In this document: one piece after another, positions 22,434-62,590 of the stretch | Position numbering within the stretch: position 1 is the first letter of the stretch | Layout: each line of letters starts with the position of its first letter | Assembly: GCA_965116495.1 (NCBI GenBank) | Contig: OZ220696.1 | Location: forward strand, 1,472,001 to 1,536,000 | Direction: 5' to 3' | DNA from: Gammaproteobacteria bacterium | GTDB taxonomy: Bacteria; Pseudomonadota; Gammaproteobacteria; Eutrophobiales; Eutrophobiaceae | DNA: 64,000 bases | Position numbers and translations under genes: made by a program | The notes under the pieces: generated by a model | What the model was told of the DNA's origin: nothing | Database searches by the model: none | Seen by the model: only the letters and a program-made list of their open reading frames with translations

Positions 22434-24890
22434 GTGTCCAATACACCAGCCAATCTCCCCGAGCGCGCCGACGTGGTGATCATCGGTGGCGGCGTGATCG
22501 GCTGCTCAATCGCTTATCACCTGGCAAAATTCCACTCGCCGGACGTTGTACTGCTGGAGCGCAAACAGATCACATCCGGAACCACCTGGCATGCGGCTGG
22601 CCTGATCGGGCAGTTGCGCGGCTCCATCAATATGACCAAGCTCGCCCGTTACACCAGGGAACTCTACGACGGCCTGGAGGCGGAAACGGGACAGGCGACG
22701 GGCTACCGGCAATGCGGATCGGTCTCAATCGCCACCAGTGAAGAACGCTTCGAGGAACTGAAACGCAACGCATCGATGGCGCAGGTGTTCGGACTGAAAG
22801 TCGATGTCGTCACACCCGGAGCAATCAAGGAGCGGGTACCGCTGCTTCATACCGACGACGTGCTCGGCGGGATACATATTCCTTCCGACGGATACGGCAA
22901 CGCGGTCGATATCACCCAGGCACTGGCCAAAGGGGCACGGGCCAACGGCGCGCGGATTTACCAGAACGTGCCGGTAACGGCAATTCGTACCGGCGCCGGA
23001 CGGGCCACCGGCGTCAGCACCGGGTACGGCGATATGGATGCCGGCCACGTGGTGCTCTGCGCCGGTATGTGGACGCGGGACCTGGCCGCCACAATCGGGG
23101 TCAACGTCCCGCTGCACGCCTGCGAGCACTACTACGCGCTGTTTGAATCCGTCCGGGGACTGGATGAAAACCTGCCGGTGATACGCGACTACGACGCCTG
23201 CACCTATTACAAACACGACGCCGGCAAATTACTGGTAGGTGCGTTTGAACCCAGCGCCCGCCCCTGGGGTATGGGCGGCATTCCCGAAGACTTCTGCTTC
23301 GATGAGATTGCCGGTAATTTCGATCACTTCGAGCCAATCCTGAGTGATGCCATGGCGCGCGTGCCCGCGCTGGAATCGGCAGGAATACAGAAGTTCTTTT
23401 GCGGTCCGGAGAGCTTTACCCCGGACGTTCGTTACCATCTCGGCCAGGCGCCCGGTTTCGGGAATTGCTTTGTCGCCGCGGGCTTGAACTCAATCGGTCT
23501 GCAGTCCGCGGGGGGAATAGGAAAAGTCATGGCGGAATGGATCCGCGCCGGGCAGCCGCCGGCCGACCTCTGGGAAGTGGACGTGCGGCGCAACATGCCT
23601 TTCCAGGGCAACCGCAAATACCTGCGTGAGCGCGTATCCGAGAGCCTGGGCCTGCTCTACGCCAGGCACTACCCTTTTCGCCAATATGAGACTGCGCGGG
23701 GCGTGCGCAGGTCACCGCTTTACGATTGCCTGAAATCAGCAGGCGCCTGTCACGGTGAAACGGCCGGGTGGGAACGGCCGAACTGGTACGCGCCCCGGGG
23801 AGTGGAAGCCAGGTACGAATACAGTTACGGGCGCCAGAACTGGTTCGAATACTCGGCTGCCGAACACAGGGCGGTACGTGACAACGTCGGCCTGTTCGAC
23901 CAGTCGTCCTTCGCCAAGTACCGCCTGGAAGGAAGAGACGCGGCGCGGGTGCTGAACCATATTTGCGCCAACGACGTTGACGTCCGGCCCGGCCGTATCG
24001 TCTACACGCAATGGTTGAACGAGAAGGGCGGGATCGAAGCAGATCTGACGGTCACGCGTCTTGCGGAGGACAGCTTCCTGATCGTCACGGCTGCTGCCAC
24101 GGAAGTGCGCGATTTCCACTGGCTCAGACAACATATCCCAGACGCTGCCCATTGCGTGTTGACCAACGTGACATCGGCCATGGGCGTCATTTCCGTAATG
24201 GGTCCGAATGCGCGCAAACTGCTGCAACCATTGACACCGGCCGACCTGTCGAATGAGGCGTTCGGCTTTGCTACCAGCCGGGAGATAGAACTGGGTTACG
24301 CATTGGTGCGCGCTTCAAGAATTACCTTCGTCGGTGAGTTGGGCTGGGAGCTTTATATACCGACCGAGTTCGTAGCTGGAGTATACGAAACGATTGTCGC
24401 TGCCGGCGAGACGGCCGGTCTGGCCCACGCTGGTTATCATGCCCTCGATTCCCTGCGCATGGAAAAAGCCTACCGCCATTGGAGTCACGATATCACCGAC
24501 GAGGACACGCCGCTCGAAGCGGGCCTGGAATTTACGGTAAAGTTCGACAAGCCGGGCGGTTTCATCGGCCGCGACGCGTTACTGAAACAAAAGGAGCAAG
24601 GCATACGCAGACGCCTGTTGCAATTCAGGCTGCTGGATCCTGAACCCCTGCTTTACCACAACGAACCGATCTGGCACCGGGACAGGATTATCGGCCACGT
24701 GACATCCGGTAGTTACGGTCATACCCTGGGCGGAAGCATCGGCCTGGGCTACGTCGACACGTCGGAGGTTCGCGACCTGGAGGAGTTCGCCGGAGATGCG
24801 TTCGAAATCGAAGTGGCAGGCGCCCGCATCAGGGCTGAGGCTTCGCTGCGCCCCATGTACGATCCCGATGGGAGGAGAATTAGGAATTGA
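22434..24890 (+). CDS. GcvT-family FAD-dependent oxidoreductase (sarcosine/dimethylglycine dehydrogenase-like)
   Basis: GGGVIG, TSGTTWHAAG, GPESFTPD, GWERPNW, LRMEKAY. Confidence 0.9.
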   Translation: MSNTPANLPERADVVIIGGGVIGCSIAYHLAKFHSPDVVLLERKQITSGTTWHAAGLIGQLRGSINMTKLARYTRELYDGLEAETGQATGYRQCGSVSIATSEERFEELKRNASMAQVFGLKVDVVTPGAIKERVPLLHTDDVLGGIHIPSDGYGNAVDITQALAKGARANGARIYQNVPVTAIRTGAGRATGVSTGYGDMDAGHVVLCAGMWTRDLAATIGVNVPLHACEHYYALFESVRGLDENLPVIRDYDACTYYKHDAGKLLVGAFEPSARPWGMGGIPEDFCFDEIAGNFDHFEPILSDAMARVPALESAGIQKFFCGPESFTPDVRYHLGQAPGFGNCFVAAGLNSIGLQSAGGIGKVMAEWIRAGQPPADLWEVDVRRNMPFQGNRKYLRERVSESLGLLYARHYPFRQYETARGVRRSPLYDCLKSAGACHGETAGWERPNWYAPRGVEARYEYSYGRQNWFEYSAAEHRAVRDNVGLFDQSSFAKYRLEGRDAARVLNHICANDVDVRPGRIVYTQWLNEKGGIEADLTVTRLAEDSFLIVTAAATEVRDFHWLRQHIPDAAHCVLTNVTSAMGVISVMGPNARKLLQPLTPADLSNEAFGFATSREIELGYALVRASRITFVGELGWELYIPTEFVAGVYETIVAAGETAGLAHAGYHALDSLRMEKAYRHWSHDITDEDTPLEAGLEFTVKFDKPGGFIGRDALLKQKEQGIRRRLLQFRLLDPEPLLYHNEPIWHRDRIIGHVTSGSYGHTLGGSIGLGYVDTSEVRDLEEFAGDAFEIEVAGARIRAEASLRPMYDPDGRRIRN

Positions 24891-25066
24891 GAATTACGAA
24901 TTAGGAATTACGAATTACGAATTAGGAATTGGGGGGTACTGCGTCACAGTGTACCATGAACAGGCCTGCGGAAAATATGCGATTCTATGGTAAATGGCCG
25001 CCGCAGGCGGCATATTCATTCGTAATTCGTAATTCCTAATTCGTAATTCCTAATTGATCCTAATTC
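24877..25066 (+). mobile_element. Heptamer-array cassette, non-coding copy 1: (GAATTAN)8 - 89-bp core - (NTAATTC)n
   Basis: Inverted heptamer arrays; core is colinear with 58646-58733; mobility is inferred. Confidence 0.7.
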
Positions 25067-26604
25067 CTGCCGACAGCCGCGCGGGAAAGAAAAATCGGGA
25101 ACCTGGCCCGCACCTCGGAATCAGTCTCGTCACTGATATGGCGGGGAAAATGGCTGGCGAGAATGTCCCGCTTTTTCTCAATAGCCATTTGCAACATAAC
25201 CGGTTTTCCGCTTTCCTCCCACACGTTCGGGCTGGTGCGATCGCTGAAATCCGGATATATGTATTCGCTTTGCATGACCTTCAAGGTCCGGTCGGAGCCC
25301 AGGTAGTGGCCTTCGCCGCTGTTGCAGACCTGTTTTATTTCATCAAAACTCAGGGTTTCGGGATTAACTTCAATCCCTCTCGTTACCCGCATGGCGGCGC
25401 CCAGCACGTCGTTGTCCAGCAGGAGGCTCTCCGGGCAGGTGCCCAGGAGACTCGCGTACATACCTGCCGATTCGTAGACGAGGTTGGAGCCCGACAACGC
25501 CGCGGCCAGGGTCGTCGCGGCGCGTTCGGCGCCGGCCTGAAAATCCGGGAACTTCGAATCAGTCATGCCGCAGGCCGTACCGAAGGGTAGGTCGTAGACG
25601 TTGCCCATTTGCGCGCAGGCCGCAGACAGCAGCCCCTGTTCGGGCGAACCGCCGCTCATGGCGCCGGTGCGCAGGTCGGAAACGAATGGCCAGGCGCCGA
25701 GAATGGCCGGGGCGCCAGGTTCGATCGCGTTCACGTAGACCAGGCCGCCGAGACATTCGGCCCAGGCCTGGGATACCGCGCCGGCCAGACAGGCCGGCGT
25801 TGTCGCCCCTGCCTGTCCTGCGGACAGGAGCAGCACCGGCATACCGCCCTGCACTGCGATCCGCAAACATTCCAGGGACTCCTGGGCAAACTTCATGGGC
25901 GGCACGACAAAGCAGTTGGATTGACTGACAAACGGTCGCGCCCGCCACTCGGCCTCACCGCCCGCAATGATGTGCAACATTTCCAGGGTTTTTTCAAGAT
26001 GCCAGGATTCGGTCCAGCTCGAAGCCACGTGTTTGCCGGTGCCCATGACAACGCAGTAGGCGGTATTGAGGTCCATTTCGTAATTGTCAGCTATATCCCG
26101 CAACACACAGGTGCGCTGGAACATGTGTATGTGTTCACAGGTGTCGGCGATGCGCGCCATGTCGTAGAGGTCCTGTGCCGTCGACTCGCGGTACAGGTTG
26201 TTTTCAGGGTCGGCTATCATGACCGCGGCGCCGGCCGTTGCGAAGTGGACCTTGCTGCCGCTGAGGTGTAAATCGTGTGCGGGGTCCTGGCCGTGCAGCA
26301 CCAGGTTGCGTCTGGAAAGGCCCATGGCGCCTTCGACCACGGCTCTCGGCATTCTGAGACGGCCGTCATCGCCGAGCACGGCGCCGACGCCGGTACAGGT
26401 CTCTATGCAGTGGGGTGTCGCGTCGCCGAAGCCGACTTCTTCCAGAATCCTGAAGACGTTATCGTTTATCGCTGCGATATCCGCATCCTTCAGAGGCCGG
26501 AATTGTCCGCCGACTTCGCCAGGGTGAACGGGCTTGAGTTCAGCGGCCAGCGGTGCGCTGCGCAATGCCCTGCGCGCCTTTCTCCCACCGGATTGTCTTG
26601 CCAT
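25060..26604 (-). CDS. Trimethylamine methyltransferase (MttB) family, non-pyrrolysine (MtgB-like)
   Basis: AGQAGATTPACLAG, SDLRTGAMSGGSPE, DSKFPDFQAGAE, GHYLG; no in-frame TAG; start set at MARQSGGR. Confidence 0.9.
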   Translation of the reverse strand: MARQSGGRKARRALRSAPLAAELKPVHPGEVGGQFRPLKDADIAAINDNVFRILEEVGFGDATPHCIETCTGVGAVLGDDGRLRMPRAVVEGAMGLSRRNLVLHGQDPAHDLHLSGSKVHFATAGAAVMIADPENNLYRESTAQDLYDMARIADTCEHIHMFQRTCVLRDIADNYEMDLNTAYCVVMGTGKHVASSWTESWHLEKTLEMLHIIAGGEAEWRARPFVSQSNCFVVPPMKFAQESLECLRIAVQGGMPVLLLSAGQAGATTPACLAGAVSQAWAECLGGLVYVNAIEPGAPAILGAWPFVSDLRTGAMSGGSPEQGLLSAACAQMGNVYDLPFGTACGMTDSKFPDFQAGAERAATTLAAALSGSNLVYESAGMYASLLGTCPESLLLDNDVLGAAMRVTRGIEVNPETLSFDEIKQVCNSGEGHYLGSDRTLKVMQSEYIYPDFSDRTSPNVWEESGKPVMLQMAIEKKRDILASHFPRHISDETDSEVRARFPIFLSRAAVGRN

Positions 26605-32547: not shown

Positions 32548-32886
32548 ATGGCTGTAGCGATGTTTGACACACATGTATTTGTAAAAGAACTTGTGCAGGT
32601 TGGCATGCCGGAAGAGCAGGCAGAGGTTTTGGCGCGAACCCATACAACGCTGATTGACGAAAAGCTTGCGACCAAGAGGGGTTTGAAAGAACTGGAGCTG
32701 GCTACGAAGAGGGATTTGAAAGAATTGGAAACTGGCCTCAAACGCGACATGAAAGGAATGGAAACCGGCCTCAAACGCGATATGAAAGAAATGGAGCTGC
32801 GGTTGAAACACGATTTGACGGTGCGCCTCGGTTCCATGATGGTGCTTGCAATCGGTGTAGTCGCCGCGCTGGTCAAATTGCTGTGA
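32548..32886 (+). CDS. DUF1640/CCDC90-family membrane-anchored coiled-coil protein
   Basis: FDTHVFVKEL..GMPEEQAE head, LATKxDL, 11-aa repeats, C-terminal TM; AAGGAG RBS. Confidence 0.85.
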   Translation: MAVAMFDTHVFVKELVQVGMPEEQAEVLARTHTTLIDEKLATKRGLKELELATKRDLKELETGLKRDMKGMETGLKRDMKEMELRLKHDLTVRLGSMMVLAIGVVAALVKLL

Positions 32887-50311: not shown

Positions 50312-50339
50312 TCAGAAAGGGAATCCTGATCCTGATGGC

Positions 50340-50396
50340 CATCCCTGGCTCTCTCCAATTCCTGCTTCCTAATTCCTAATTCTTAATTCCTAATTT
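50340..50396 (-). mobile_element. Heptamer-array cassette remnant (one arm plus leader and ATG, no ORF)
   Basis: GAATTGGAGAGAGCCAGGGATG matches 19/22 the leader GAATTGGAGTGAGTCAAGGATG of the four-helix gene. Confidence 0.65.
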
Positions 50397-57618: not shown

Positions 57619-58596
57619 ATGGCAAAGACTAATTCACAATCGTGCGTCAATACCTGGTCCACGGACAGCCTGGCGAAGAGCGACCGCTTCGATGCCTGGG
57701 CAACCGTTCTCAATGAGGCGTATGGCCGCTGGGAAATGGATCGGGCGCAGGCGCCCGACTTCTTCAGCCGCGTCAAGCATTACGACGACACCCTGCTGAA
57801 GGTCATTGAATGCACCTGCGACCCGTGCGGCGCGACCCGCACCCGCGCCAGCATCCGCGCCGACGGGCTGGAGAACCTGACCGTACAGGCGGTACTGGCT
57901 GGCCGGGAATATATCAACTTCAACGGCGAGGACATCCTACTGAAAGCAGGCGATCTCCTGATCTGGGACAGCACCCGGCCCATGACGTTCCAGGTGCAGA
58001 ACCGCTTGCACAAGATCTCCGTGATGCTGCCCTTGCCGCGCTTTCAATCCTGGCTGCCCCGCTCCTGGTTCTCCATTCGCCACTCGCTGGATGGGCAATC
58101 AAACAGCGGCCTGTTATTGACCAACCATATCAAATCACTGCGGGATTCGGTCTTCGACGGCGGCTGCAAGGACAACCATGCCTTGGTTGATGCGACCATC
58201 GGCGTGCTGGTCAACGCACTGGAGATGGGCAGCGCGGATGATCCGACCCCGCTGCGCGTCACCCAGTTACGCTATATCAAGGAATACATCCGGGCCAACA
58301 TTCGCGACCCTGAGCTGTCCCCGGCCTTGATCGCCAAGGCCGGCGGCATGTCCTCCCGTTACCTGCACTGGCTGTTCAATGCCAACGAGGATGAGGATAC
58401 GGTCAAACAGTATATTTTCCACCAGCGCCTGGACCTGTGCGCCCGTGACCTGTCGAATCCGCACATGAAACACAGGAAAATCTCCGATATTGCCTTCTAC
58501 TGGGGTTTCCAGGACACCGCCCATTTCAACAAACGCTTCAAGCAGCAGCACCAGTTGTCGCCGGGCGCGTTTCGGGAGAAGATGCAGAAGGATTAA
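57619..58596 (+). CDS. AraC-family regulator (FeaR-like)
   Basis: IRANIRDPELSP, SSRYLHWLF, ISDIAFYWGFQDTAHFNKRFK; GGAGG RBS. Confidence 0.9.
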   Translation: MAKTNSQSCVNTWSTDSLAKSDRFDAWATVLNEAYGRWEMDRAQAPDFFSRVKHYDDTLLKVIECTCDPCGATRTRASIRADGLENLTVQAVLAGREYINFNGEDILLKAGDLLIWDSTRPMTFQVQNRLHKISVMLPLPRFQSWLPRSWFSIRHSLDGQSNSGLLLTNHIKSLRDSVFDGGCKDNHALVDATIGVLVNALEMGSADDPTPLRVTQLRYIKEYIRANIRDPELSPALIAKAGGMSSRYLHWLFNANEDEDTVKQYIFHQRLDLCARDLSNPHMKHRKISDIAFYWGFQDTAHFNKRFKQQHQLSPGAFREKMQKD

Positions 58597-58747
58597 GAAT
58601 TAGGAATTAAGAATTACGAATTAGGAATTAAGAATTAGGAATTGGAGTTGTTGCATTACCGTGTTTCCTACTCCGGCCTGCGGAAGTTCTTTGATTAACA
58701 GGTAAACAGCCGCCACCGGCGGCACATTCATTCTTAATTCCTAATTC
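58590..58747 (+). mobile_element. Heptamer-array cassette, non-coding copy 2
   Basis: (GAATTAN)n-GAATTGG, 88-bp core homologous to 24933-25021, short inverted arm. Confidence 0.7.
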
Positions 58748-58791: not shown

Positions 58792-60747
58792 ATGACAAAA
58801 CCGCACAACACCCGTGAAGACAAACTGCTCGGCTTCGACGCCGATATCACCCGCCGGGATTTTATCGGCAGCACCATAATCGGCACCGGCGCCGGTTTGT
58901 TATACGCCAATGCGCCCGGTCTGATGCGCAGCGCAAACGCCCAGACGCTGCCTGTTCCCCTGACCGGCGTAGGTCCCGACTGGACCGGGCCCGGCGGCAT
59001 CGGCGACTACAGGGACGCAAACGGCAATACCCATCAGGTAATGAACGACGGCCACGGCATCCGCAATGGCGCCTACGAAAAAGCCTTCAAGGACGCTGTT
59101 GATTCCGGCGAAGTCTATGATCTGGTCGTAGTCGGCGGCGGTTTTGCCGGCCTCGCGGCCGCATACCGTTACCACGAGGACAGACCGGACGCGCCGGTAT
59201 TGATCCTGGACAACCATGCCATGTTTGGCGGGGAGGCCAAACAGAACGAGTTCGAAGTGGACGGCGTCCATTTATGGGCGCCGCAAGGCTCGAATGGCAG
59301 CGTATTCCCGCCCAACCGCACCAAGCCCATCGGCTGGCATCATGATTACTGGGACAAGCTGGGATTGCCCATGGAGTTTAAATACCAGGCCGCAAAAGGC
59401 CTGGACAAGGACCTGAAAATCCCCAGGGACGTGTACAGCCCCATGCACATCGCCTGGGAACACGCTGACCTGGCCCATTATCATGAAAACCATGGCATGG
59501 TGATGAACCCCTGGAACAGCGGATTCAAGGATGCACCGATAGCGGACAGCCTGAAGCGCGAGCTGTTGCAGATGGAGCTTTACAAGGATGTGCCGTACCG
59601 GAAGGAAGACTGGCACCACTGGCTGGACACCATGACCTATGAGGAGTTCCTGACCCGTTACGTAGGCGTCTCAAAAGAGGTGACGCCTTATCTCAACCCG
59701 CAGACTGCGGCCATGGGCTGCGGCCTGGGCGCAGACGTCATTTCCGCGTATTCCGCCTACGAGTTCGTCCAGCCCGGGGTGATTACCTACAAGCGCCATG
59801 CCGGCCTGGAAGACCCATCCGAGTATGTTTACCTGGCCAGTTTCCCGGGCGGCAACACGGGAATCGCCCGCCATTTCGTCAAGGCCATGATCCCGGCTGC
59901 CATCGAGGGGGATAACTCCCTGTCCGCGGTGCTGTTCAATAATATCAACTGGAACGAACTGGACCGGGCCGGCCAGCCTACGCGCATGCGCCTGTCCGCC
60001 ACCGTTGCCGGCGTTATGCACGACGGCTCGCCGAATTCCGCCAAAAGCGTATCGGTAATCTATTACCGGGACGGCAAACTGCACAAGGTCAAGGCGAAAA
60101 ACGTCGTTATGGCAAGCGGCCAGTGGGTGAACCGGTTGGTCTGCAAGGACCTGCCGCCAAAATACCAGGACGCCATGGCCACGTTCCACCATGCGCCCAT
60201 GCACACCGTCAACGTGGCGTTGCGCAACTGGAAGTTCCTGGAGAAACTGGGCGCGACTGCGGTACGCTGGTTCGAAGGTTACGGCTGGTTCTTCAGCATG
60301 CGCCGGCAGATGATCATCGACGGCAAGGAGCCCATGCCCCTGGACCCCTCCAAGCCGACAGTGCTCACCATGTACAACTCGTTCTGCAACCCGGGCATCC
60401 CCATGCCGCAGCAGGCAACCACAGCCCGCATGCAGTTGTTCGGCCTGTCTTATGCAGACGTAGAACGCGGGGTGCGAGAGCAATTCACCAAAATGTTTTC
60501 GGAGTACGGCTTCGACGCCAAACGCGATATCGCCGGCATCGTATCAAACCGCTGGGGACATGCTTACGTCGTATCGCCGCCCGGGTTTTATTACGGCAAA
60601 CACGGCGAACCGTCAGCCAGTGACGTTATCCGCGAGCCACACGGCCGTATTGCCTTCGGCCATTCCGAACTGACCGGCGCCCAGCTCTGGGGGACGGCCG
60701 CGGAAGAAGGAGCGCGGGCGGCCAGCCAGGCTCTGGATATGACGTAG
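58792..60747 (+). CDS. Tat-type FAD oxidoreductase, spermidine dehydrogenase (SpdH)-like
   Basis: TRRDFIG, YDLVVVGGGFAG, LDNHAMFGGEAKQNEF, FPGGN, NRWGHAY. Confidence 0.75.
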   Translation: MTKPHNTREDKLLGFDADITRRDFIGSTIIGTGAGLLYANAPGLMRSANAQTLPVPLTGVGPDWTGPGGIGDYRDANGNTHQVMNDGHGIRNGAYEKAFKDAVDSGEVYDLVVVGGGFAGLAAAYRYHEDRPDAPVLILDNHAMFGGEAKQNEFEVDGVHLWAPQGSNGSVFPPNRTKPIGWHHDYWDKLGLPMEFKYQAAKGLDKDLKIPRDVYSPMHIAWEHADLAHYHENHGMVMNPWNSGFKDAPIADSLKRELLQMELYKDVPYRKEDWHHWLDTMTYEEFLTRYVGVSKEVTPYLNPQTAAMGCGLGADVISAYSAYEFVQPGVITYKRHAGLEDPSEYVYLASFPGGNTGIARHFVKAMIPAAIEGDNSLSAVLFNNINWNELDRAGQPTRMRLSATVAGVMHDGSPNSAKSVSVIYYRDGKLHKVKAKNVVMASGQWVNRLVCKDLPPKYQDAMATFHHAPMHTVNVALRNWKFLEKLGATAVRWFEGYGWFFSMRRQMIIDGKEPMPLDPSKPTVLTMYNSFCNPGIPMPQQATTARMQLFGLSYADVERGVREQFTKMFSEYGFDAKRDIAGIVSNRWGHAYVVSPPGFYYGKHGEPSASDVIREPHGRIAFGHSELTGAQLWGTAAEEGARAASQALDMT

Positions 60748-60749
60748 TT

Positions 60750-61260
60750 AATTACGAATTAGGAATTAGGAATTAGGAATTAGGAATTAGGGATGAATTT
60801 TGCTTCTTTCTGTCTCATTGTTTTGGTGATTGAGCCAGATAGTTTTAGAAGTTCCTCACAGTCTGCGACAACGGGGTTGATCTGTGCAGGTGTGAGTATG
60901 CCTGAATCCCGGAGTAAACGGAGCCAGTAGTGTGTTTCCCGGGCTTCCTTATAGGCAATGCTCATCTTGGAAATAAAATCCTTTGTTGACTGACCGCCGA
61001 TGGCCTCTTCCACGTTTGCGCCAATAGAGGTACCACTGCGAACCACCTGCTTTGACAAAACAAATTCCTTTTTCTCCTCTCGCAAATGACGGTAAACTTT
61101 CATAATACTCAGCGAAAAAGCATACGATTTTTCGCGTACAGGATTGTCCATTTTCATCCTTGACTCACTCCAATTCGTAGTCCCCAATTCCTAATTCGTA
61201 ATTCCTAATTCGTAATTCGTAATTCCTAATTCGTAATTCCTAATTCCTAATTCGTAATTG
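60750..61260 (-). mobile_element. Heptamer-array cassette carrying four-helix-bundle gene
   Basis: GAATTAG x5 at 60756-60790; ~13 in-phase (C/G)TAATTC-type units at 61170-61260. Confidence 0.75.
60780..61157 (-). CDS. Four helix bundle protein (TIGR02436 / 23S_rRNA_IVP family)
   Basis: KSYAFSL, LSKQVVRSGTSIGANVEEA, DFISKMSIAYKEARETHYWLRLL; visibly more AT-rich than neighbours. Confidence 0.92.
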   Translation of the reverse strand: MKMDNPVREKSYAFSLSIMKVYRHLREEKKEFVLSKQVVRSGTSIGANVEEAIGGQSTKDFISKMSIAYKEARETHYWLRLLRDSGILTPAQINPVVADCEELLKLSGSITKTMRQKEAKFIPNS

Positions 61261-62590
61261 TATTTATCACCTTGCGTACCGTGTCGAAGGTCTGGTCAAG
61301 CAGGTCCGGCGTGAATGTTAAAAACGGCGAGAACGCCAGGGTATCCATGCCGTGGCGCACCATCAGTCCCTGCTCAAAACATTTGACGTGGGCTTCCATT
61401 CCCCGGGCGCCCGGCGCGCCGGGACGCGGTTTCATTTCGATGGCGCCCATCAGGCCGAAATTACGTACGTCTATGACGTGGGGGGCATTCCGCAAGTCAT
61501 GCAACGCGGACTCAAAAATCGGTTCAAGCTCTCTCACCCTGGCGCCAATATCTTCCTCAACATAAATATCCAGCGCGGCGAGGCCTGCGGCTGCGGCTAC
61601 CGGGTGACCCGAATAGGTATAACCGTGGAAAAACTCGATGGCATGCTCGGGACCGTTCATGAAACTCCGGTAGATGTCATCACTGACCAGCACCGCGCCC
61701 ATGGGAATGACCCCGTTGGTAATCCCCTTGGCCGTGGTGATGATATCCGGCATCACGCCGAAGCGCTGGCAGCCGAATGGCGCGCCGATGCGATGGAACG
61801 CGGTAATCACTTCGTCAAATATCAGCAGGATACCGTGCTGCGTACAGATTTCCCGCAGGCGCTCCAGGTAACCCAGGGGTGGCACCAGCACGCCGGCTGA
61901 GCCGGATACGGGCTCCACGATTACCGCTGCAATATTTTCCGCATCATGCAACGCGACAATGCGTTCCAGTTCGTCGGCCAGGTGCCGGCCCCACTTGGGC
62001 TGGCCCTTGCTGAAGGCATTATGTTCCAGGTCAAGGACGTGGGGAAGATGGTCTACGTTCGGTAGCATGGCGTTGCCGAACATCTTGCGGTTTCCCGGGA
62101 TACCGCCCACCGACATCCCGCCGAAGTTGACACCATGGTAACCTCTCTCTCGCCCGATCAGCTTGATCCGGGTCCCGTCCCCGCGCACCCGGTGCCAGCC
62201 CAAGGCAATCTTCAAAGCGGTGTCTACGGCTTCCGAACCGGAATTGGTGAAGAACACATGGTCAAACCCGTCCGGCGCGAAATTGATTACCTTCTCTGCC
62301 AGTTCGAACGCCCCGGTATGGCCCACCTGGAAGGCTGCAGCGTAATCCAGCCTGGCAACCTGGTCCTGCACCGCCTTGACGATCCTGGGATGGCAGTGGC
62401 CCAGGCCGGTGCTCCATAACCCTGAAAAGGAATCCAGGACAGTCCGCCCTTCCCGGGTCCGGTAATAAAACCCCTGAGCGGACTCGATGATACGCGGGTC
62501 GTTCTTGAAGGCGCGATTCGCCGTATAGGGCAGCCAGTATGGCTCCAGGTTCAACTTAGTGCCGGTAACCGGCTTTGCAATATCGTCCAT
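61247..62590 (-). CDS. Class III omega-amino acid (beta-alanine):pyruvate aminotransferase
   Basis: YWLPYTANRAFK, FTNSGSEAVDTALK, GYHGVNFGG, FDEVIT, TAKG, FFHGYTYSGHP. Confidence 0.9.
   Translation of the reverse strand: MDDIAKPVTGTKLNLEPYWLPYTANRAFKNDPRIIESAQGFYYRTREGRTVLDSFSGLWSTGLGHCHPRIVKAVQDQVARLDYAAAFQVGHTGAFELAEKVINFAPDGFDHVFFTNSGSEAVDTALKIALGWHRVRGDGTRIKLIGRERGYHGVNFGGMSVGGIPGNRKMFGNAMLPNVDHLPHVLDLEHNAFSKGQPKWGRHLADELERIVALHDAENIAAVIVEPVSGSAGVLVPPLGYLERLREICTQHGILLIFDEVITAFHRIGAPFGCQRFGVMPDIITTAKGITNGVIPMGAVLVSDDIYRSFMNGPEHAIEFFHGYTYSGHPVAAAAGLAALDIYVEEDIGARVRELEPIFESALHDLRNAPHVIDVRNFGLMGAIEMKPRPGAPGARGMEAHVKCFEQGLMVRHGMDTLAFSPFLTFTPDLLDQTFDTVRKVINTITN

Follow-up and report, generated by a model that had tools for sequence, protein, structure and literature searches.

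A four-helix-bundle gene with inverted heptamer arms forms a variable, probably mobile cassette at host stop codons

The cassette and its relatives in the window

The window, the whole 64,000-nt stretch of DNA that was analyzed, carries a gene of the four-helix-bundle family TIGR02436/PF05635 between two convergent host genes (Table 1); the genome carrying the window is labeled G000. The protein was analyzed in its 123-aa form, which starts at 61151. It scored 105 bits against the TIGR02436 profile (cut-off 24) and 94.8 bits against the PF05635 profile (cut-off 33.8), a genome search revealed that it was the sole such match in G000, and exact look-ups placed it in a cluster of one. The initial annotation had described the gene as AT-richer, set between convergent neighbors and bounded by inverted arrays, and this description proved accurate: the gene had a GC of 45% and a GC3 of 47%, compared with a GC3 of 77% and 71% for the two neighbors, and the three-unit array pattern matched the window 23 times, with no match in any of 100 shuffles.

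Table 1. Coordinates of the cassette, its host genes and related copies in the window
Feature	Position	Strand	Remarks
Gene-less copy at 24877	24877-25067	+	88-nt cargo 24932-25019; convergent host genes on either side
Remnant at 50340 of a second gene cassette	50339-50395	-	Single arm, gene leader, ATG
Gene-less copy at 58590	58588-58747	+	88-nt cargo 58644-58731, including a GC hairpin, between one arm and a second, short one
Host gene, FAD-dependent oxidoreductase, left flank	58792-60747	+	
Left heptamer arm, (GAATTAG/C)n	60750-60791	+	3' arm of the gene; onset 2 nt past the oxidoreductase stop
Four-helix-bundle gene, TIGR02436/PF05635	60780-61157	-	125 aa from called start 61157; second ATG 61151
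Leader of four-helix gene	61158-61185	-	GAATTGGAG junction and likely ribosome-binding site
Right heptamer arm	61186-61259	-	5' arm of the gene; takes the place of the final aminotransferase codons, stop included
Host gene, omega-aminotransferase, right flank	61247-62590	-	Same orientation as the cassette gene

The structure model of the protein (pLDDT 94) was composed of four helices, and its closest fold matches were 2RLD (TM 0.85, 50% identity) and 2GSC (TM 0.76). Both crystals, which have 50% and 18% identity to the protein, contain five chains each, and by analogy with these entries we infer a homopentameric state. The protein is basic, with a pI of 9.4. Its fold had also been said to be shared with Avd of diversity-generating retroelements. 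The likeness stood (TM 0.71 for the predicted structure), but its specificity did not, because Avd, with 16% identity and E 0.04, ranked no better in the fold search than an unrelated plant four-helix protein. Comparison with the gene of the congener G007 showed 16 non-synonymous and 15 synonymous-only codon changes, which implied that the four-helix gene was under weak constraint.

The left arm provides the stop codon of the four-helix gene, and pairing of the two arms was predicted to form a stem of 40 bp (z -5.9). The cassette is located between two protein genes and not within an rRNA gene, and an Rfam search of it gave a single chance match (E 0.94). No promoter-like site was found upstream of the gene on its own strand; the omega-aminotransferase is its likely transcription source. 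Terminators and promoters at the arms were at or below the shuffle level, so that the role in termination control once suggested for the element was not supported. All matches to reverse transcriptase (PF00078) and Y1 transposase (PF01797) in G000 were outside the window, where the profile scan for domain content covered about 25 ORFs; the window had been described as free of such enzymes. One reverse transcriptase match, at G000:C1:4123428-4126148, was split into two pieces and contained stops.

Heptamer arrays in the window were located at 60750-60791, 61186-61259, 24877-24931/25018-25055, 58588-58643 and 50357-50395. The polar junctions reported to be common to the gene cassette and the copies at 24877 and 58590 were found where expected: GAATTGG[AG]G occurred at 61190/61176, 58639, 24926 and 50361, and A.ATTCAT[CT]C at 60800, 58724 and 25012. 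Among the 56 genes in the GAATT/GAATG clade, each junction motif was found at one gene only; the motifs are therefore lineage-specific and connect the cassette that carries the gene with the nearby non-coding copies. The leader of the gene recurs at 50340 and in G007, and the array onset at 24877 coincides with a host GAATT just 5' of the ancestral stop codon.

Elements across the genome and at orthologous sites

Arrays were found genome-wide in G000, 48 forward and 47 reverse, arranged as 35 facing pairs and 25 single arms, with no lone outward-facing pair among the array clusters. The four-helix gene was missing from 34 of the 35 facing pairs, and just one pair enclosed an ORF of that size. 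The 88-nt cargo, or its hairpin end, had 20 matching places, and 14 near-full copies showed 72-91% identity to their own consensus. The commonest changes in these copies were C>T and G>A, and adenine bias was absent (A 0.18, C 0.20, G 0.22, T 0.19). Two identities of the cargo were rejected: a small protein, because the six frames carried no codon signal, and a decayed four-helix gene, because no HMM or DNA similarity to the gene was found. The short spacers of the pairs gave only chance matches of 10-17 nt to the gene. The GC hairpin was also rejected as a general family trait, being present at 7 of 160 flanks compared with 6% of the control, and a search with the hairpin motif returned three metagenome loci, with no four-helix gene in the part inspected.

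With ORFs called crudely, a stop codon lay at most 20 nt from the end of 38 of the 52 intergenic elements. The corresponding share was 11% for randomly placed intergenic points and 20-44% for four further families of palindromes. The stop codon of the host gene was often provided by the array. Thirty of the 62 non-coding elements were located between convergent genes; when the elements were read in gene polarity, the upstream gene was in sense orientation in 49 of 61 (shared sites counted repeatedly). G000 carried 249, 134, 113 and 37 clusters of four families of unrelated palindromes. No arrays were found within 1.5 kb of 10 Y1-transposase loci, and a Y1/RAYT transposase link was rejected on this ground. 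The heptamer element at G000:C1:2158953-2159332 was interrupted by a repeat of 270 nt, present in about 67 copies that share 96-98% identity, a separate MITE-like family that was recently active.

The two genes flanking the cassette were adjacent in 13 of 22 congeners, in which the main site was inverted in one, had collapsed arms in two and had no GAATTAN arms in ten. The inverted allele, in G007, is the same cassette with 35 of 372 nt different, and in G016 and G022 the junctions of G000 surround fused arms of 20 and 34 nt only. The ten armless congeners had the GGGGTCAGAG palindrome in six cases, another palindrome in one and none in three. The gap orthologous to 60748-61246 in L091 and L093-L099 was observed to contain unrelated palindromes, GGGGTCAGAG..CTCTGACCCC or CCCGC..GCGGG. 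Such gaps, with cassette or palindrome, are hotspots for several repeat types. Empty, collapsed and inverted alleles of the same sites thus exist among the congeners and, together with the facing pairs across the genome, bear out the description of a repeat-bounded element family given in the initial annotation.

The other copies in the window varied in a similar manner. At the 58590 site, G005 had the same cargo inverted, with 82 of 88 positions identical, the next-nearest copy being 77% identical. At the 50340 site, arms were present in 4 of the 15 genomes having both flanks, and in G007 both arms surrounded an internally deleted four-helix gene (E 5e-10); because of this deleted copy at the same site, the array at 50340, described earlier as a leader-only remnant, can be assigned to a gene cassette. 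Among 17 genomes, the 24877 site was full in two, collapsed in three (G022, G016 and G015), began with two units followed by another repeat in one, and was armless in 11; its cargo was different in G005. The 24877 gap of G010 (L337) contained two short ORFs that looked by eye like a toxin-antitoxin pair.

Mapping from G005, G016 and G022 placed 51 of 59 motif matches onto G000, of which nine failed the element filter (two of them, L160 and L163, are visibly elements), five lacked synteny and 37 were scored. In these 37 syntenic non-coding comparisons, the element had the same orientation in nine and was inverted in five (three distinct sites), six had arms without the 88-nt cargo (two rows being one site), and 17 had no arms. 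Both orientations of the segment between the inverted repeats were therefore found, between species, at the gene site and at three non-coding sites. One of the three inverted non-coding sites holds an active subfamily, and its orientation may be due to re-insertion instead of a flip; any long inverted repeat is expected to invert and collapse. Near-identical cargo was present at different sites in G005 (93/94, 96/97 and 90/94) and G016 (84/88), and one cargo core of G000 was identical to a G016 copy at a different site; locus L133 was left out of this comparison. No target duplication was seen at the window sites. Our results showed that the gene forms a single unit together with its pair of inverted arms, and that at host stop codons this unit has been acquired, flipped, reduced to collapsed arms or exchanged. 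They also showed that a gene copy decayed to a gene-less pair and that non-coding cargo was copied to new sites.

Gene presence and array load did not go together within the genus. Four-unit GAATTAN matches were present in 7 of 23 genus genomes (186, 260, 110, 63, 39, 24 and 1 matches). The four-helix gene of the GAATTAN cassette was found in G000 and G007 only, and four of the six array-rich congeners (G005, G016, G022 and G015) had neither the gene nor a remnant; the gene-less G005 and G016 nonetheless held recently copied cargo. Similarly, the unit of the four-helix gene of G001 occurred four times in G001 and 108 and 32 times in the gene-less G003 and G014, where its arrays likewise faced each other and in part used host sites in common with the GAATTAN arrays. 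In the phylum sample, (GCAGTAG)3 was found in 8 of 301 genomes (three genera), all 8 among the 58 with the gene family. The array-rich, gene-less genomes and the GCAGTAG distribution together implied that a lineage must have the gene for arrays to occur, although an individual genome with arrays may be without it. In G016 and G022, the scar at the gene site indicates that the gene may have been lost recently. The uncoupling cuts both ways, being compatible with a transient visitor that seeds arms or with arms capable of spreading on their own.

A second heptamer family, TAGTTTT/AAAACTA, was observed in the same facing layout at L282-L297 (G003, G014 and G005), and it used some of the host gene ends also used by the GAATTAN family. 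Since the gaps are also used by palindromes, and some host sites are common to two heptamer families, the choice of site may reflect tolerance and not targeting. Unit usage was specific to the genome: AAG made up 35% in G005 and 5-14% in G000, G016, G022 and G007, and ACG made up 6% in G005 and 32-47% in the other four, which suggests genome-wide homogenization.

Heptamer units across the family and near-identical cassettes in other hosts

A family sample of 191 loci, half of them chosen by likeness to the query gene, gave through its own profile 183 full-length genes with flanks and 160 after duplicate removal. Period-7 arrays were found upstream of 74% and downstream of 78% of these genes, which come from many phyla, and on both sides of 98, compared with 8.3% of 327 control ORF ends; other periods (4-6 and 8-12) reached at most 6%. 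In the remaining 62 genes, at least one side had no scored array. In 75 of the 98, the upstream and downstream units were reverse complements of each other (shuffled mean 18, maximum 28), and outside the GAATTAG clade the units of the arms agreed in 24 of 34 (shuffled 1.7). Both the enrichment of inverted 7-mer arrays around four-helix genes and the covariation of protein and repeat, raised as expectations in the initial annotation, were found.

The covariation was analyzed in pairs of genes; these pairs lack independence, and a single clade dominates them. Units were alike at six or more of seven positions in 2% of the pairs below 40% protein identity, in 40-50% at 50-70% identity and in at least 70% above that. 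At 50-70% protein identity, four-fold sites were saturated (0.27-0.28 vs a background of 0.26), whereas the units were 0.75-0.77 alike against a background of 0.51, over a flank GC range of 31-68%. From these sequence comparisons, the heptamer unit appears to track the protein clade past the saturation of synonymous sites.

The upstream neighbor was co-oriented with the family gene in 129 of 140 scorable cases (11 opposed, 20 of the 160 unscored). A general target duplication was absent; flanking direct repeats occurred at 6 of the 160 genes, and two of these were tandem cassette copies. Arrays on both sides were present at 9 of 14 viral loci, one with reversed polarity and one direct. In the viral contig L362:1870-2470, the arms pointed outward around the gene, opposite to the usual polarity. 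Cassettes at L003, L005, L006, L007, L009, L014 and L017 adjoined genes that looked, by sequence, like type I restriction-modification subunits, and at L009 and L063 the start or end of a host gene was duplicated across the cassette. Full and partial four-helix gene copies in tandem, attributable to arm-driven amplification or assembly error, were observed at G048:C1:130619-131744, G041:C1:1684830-1686144 and G042:C1:808119-815580.

Sequencing runs were examined as assembled contigs (Logan), which break inside the arms and link cassette to host by depth and junction only. In X6, X7, X13 and X15, from four studies, the cassette differed from that of G000 at 3/450, 3/421, 3/447 and 5/440 positions, and two of the four had a 13-nt deletion in the leader. 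Host-gene contigs of like depth were 7-8% different from G000; several of them ran into arms, and some host positions had no G000 allele at all. The G000-G007 ratio gave an expectation of 17-19 differences in the cassette (P 6e-6 to 5e-4), and the identity of the host genes adjoining it was not raised. The host in X13 was rejected as G016, G022 or G015, with 25, 23 and 24 of 31 alleles, respectively. Near-identical cassettes in diverged hosts, as read from unphased contigs, point to a recent transfer between species. No close copy was found in a phage or plasmid vehicle: the best identity among the 14 viral loci was 51%, and the 31 hits among 72,556 plasmid records were all below 60%. In the source run X1, the depth of the cassette was 27.4 and that of the flanks 27-28.7, so that the excised or circular forms proposed earlier were not seen in these contigs; rare excised forms could not show since all runs were contigs. 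The joints that did occur in the run contigs derived from other arm pairs and were left out of account.

Explanation of the cassette and relation to known systems

Intervening sequences with an ORF have been described in the 23S rRNA of Coxiella burnetii, Leptospira, Xanthomonas and Brucella (PMC4990558). According to that paper, the Coxiella sequence has heptamers GACAGAT in variable number ahead of the ORF and is cut by RNase III, and a role of the ORF in mobility was suggested there with reference to Ralph and McClelland 1993. As far as described, these S23p intervening sequences share with the cassette the protein family, the sense orientation of the ORF to the host transcript, the upstream heptamers, terminal inverted repeats that form a stem, and a patchy, horizontally acquired distribution. 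Because the Coxiella case has the same gene family, heptamers and stem, the design of the cassette has a precedent. The intervening sequence is located in rRNA, whereas the cassette is found where protein genes end, at their stop codons; it is accompanied by dozens of gene-less copies in each genome and is subject to inversion and collapse. By analogy, the cassette may work like an ORF-bearing intervening sequence placed outside rRNA; RNase III cleavage, which was shown for the rRNA intervening sequence only, would extend to it in the same way.

Heptamer repeats are reported in Xanthomonas (GGGAATC) and Nostoc (GGGGA(C/T)T) (PMC4692102) and in Beggiatoaceae (TAACTGA) (PMC4679880); two genomes of Xanthomonas contain 70 and 75 inverted pairs in convergent arrangement (PMC4692102). 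Like the arrays here, they are dispersed, intergenic and close to ORF ends as described; the two papers relate them to quadruplexes or translation control, and the four-helix gene is absent from the portions available. The four-helix gene itself has been likened to Avd (PMC10053308; bioRxiv 2023.10.23.563531) and, in other reports, found within cas operons (PMC3936711), at scattered rRNA sites (bioRxiv 2024.02.27.582315) and, as four-helix-type genes, among strain-specific genes (PMC8700078). No description of the family with heptamer arms outside rRNA was found in the literature covered, which included few subscription papers and excluded supplements. The cassette is real, widespread and apparently undescribed outside rRNA.

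The cassette also differs from other known systems. Labels of the MITE and REP/RAYT type, and also dRS3, are used for bacterial repeats. MITE and REP/RAYT repeats resemble the elements here in their short non-coding copies, inverted ends, genome-wide distribution and frequent location between convergent genes. The cassette, however, ends in tandem arrays of variable length, has no general target duplication, encodes no known nuclease and shows no arrays at the Y1 loci mentioned above. With Avd of diversity-generating retroelements (4DWL, 8UB7), the cassette protein shares the four-helix fold, basic character and five-chain relatives, but there is no linked reverse transcriptase, template or variable repeat, and adenine mutagenesis is absent. 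A recombinase-driven invertible switch would likewise show the segment in both orientations, as found here between species, but the neighbors of the cassette are metabolic genes, there is no dedicated invertase, and the arms vary in length and unit order. By the features tested, the cassette is not a DGR or an invertase switch and is unlikely to be an IS.

The cassette is very probably a mobile unit in the broad sense. Our preferred explanation, to which we assign a probability of roughly 0.45, is a protein-assisted selfish cassette that has no transposase, is moved by host recombination through its arms and is parked at host stop codons. The Avd-like protein, predicted to recognize its own heptamer, would help host recombination to copy the unit into gene ends that bear arms or contain AATT. 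First entry would proceed via AATT microhomology and later entries via arm-to-arm gene conversion, which would make both orientations equivalent and leave no target duplication. The gene would be expressed by read-through from the upstream host gene, and the arms would pair into the predicted stem, a possible substrate for RNase III like the stem of the 23S intervening sequence. Homing between species would be horizontal. In a stronger form, which we propose only tentatively, an Avd-like pentamer would read a clade-specific 7-base code in the arms, home at stop codons and between species, and mobilize gene-less copies in trans; the cassette would then represent a new class free of transposase, integrase and reverse transcriptase, the 23S intervening sequence would be a stranded member, and most dispersed heptamers would be footprints.

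The copying of cargo in gene-less genomes, the uncoupling of gene and array load within the genus and the lack of a catalytic partner would also fit unstable arms that flip, collapse and swap cargo by host recombination alone, with the gene riding ordinary horizontal transfer and the protein being at most a self-regulatory transcript binder. The Coxiella protein, moreover, had no growth effect in E. coli, and its ORF is described as decaying (PMC4990558). We consider this explanation rather unlikely because it leaves unexplained why the unit persists past the saturation of synonymous sites and matches the protein clade in different hosts, as well as the near-identical cassette in diverged hosts, and because the scars in two gene-less genomes leave room for recent loss. 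It is improbable that the arms are elements useful to the host, that is, 3' stems or RNase III sites tuning the stability of operon mRNA, with the protein as a genome-wide repeat-binding regulator. The arms adjoin stop codons and occupy short gaps, nearly half of the non-coding elements lie between convergent genes, other palindromes fill the same gaps, and heptamers near ORF ends were taken as regulatory in PMC4679880 and PMC4692102; however, site conservation between species was poor (17 of 37 without arms), the four-helix gene was absent from most array-rich genomes, and no terminator-like signal was found at the arms. An orphan retro-element, in which a free-standing Avd would bind the excised stem RNA and recruit a reverse transcriptase in trans for cDNA homing via the arms as in DGR retrohoming, is quite improbable, since reverse transcriptase matches were absent from G005, G016 and G007 and only the broken one was present in G000, the 14 cargo copies lacked adenine bias and the Avd fold match was generic, even though the modeled fold is Avd-like, Avd is described as a pentamer that binds RNA and has been compared with S23 proteins (bioRxiv 2023.10.23.563531), the sense orientation predominates and replacement leaves no target duplication.

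The preferred reading of a mobile cassette, if true, would account for the 7-base repeats whose presence in many bacterial genomes has been puzzling. It would give a very large orphan protein family a testable role and tie together three loose ends, namely the S23p intervening sequences, the unexplained bacterial heptamer repeats and the origin of Avd. The genus offers the same sites in several allelic states (filled, inverted, collapsed, decayed and empty) as material for tracing the route of movement, and the clade-specific unit allows a direct protein-heptamer swap test.

At 32548-32886, the window also contains a small CCDC90-like coiled-coil ORF with 33-nt repeats. The 58590 gap 5' of the oxidoreductase in G008 and G021 (L095 and L098) was filled by a short ORF resembling it by eye, and the ORF is perhaps another small mobile gene.
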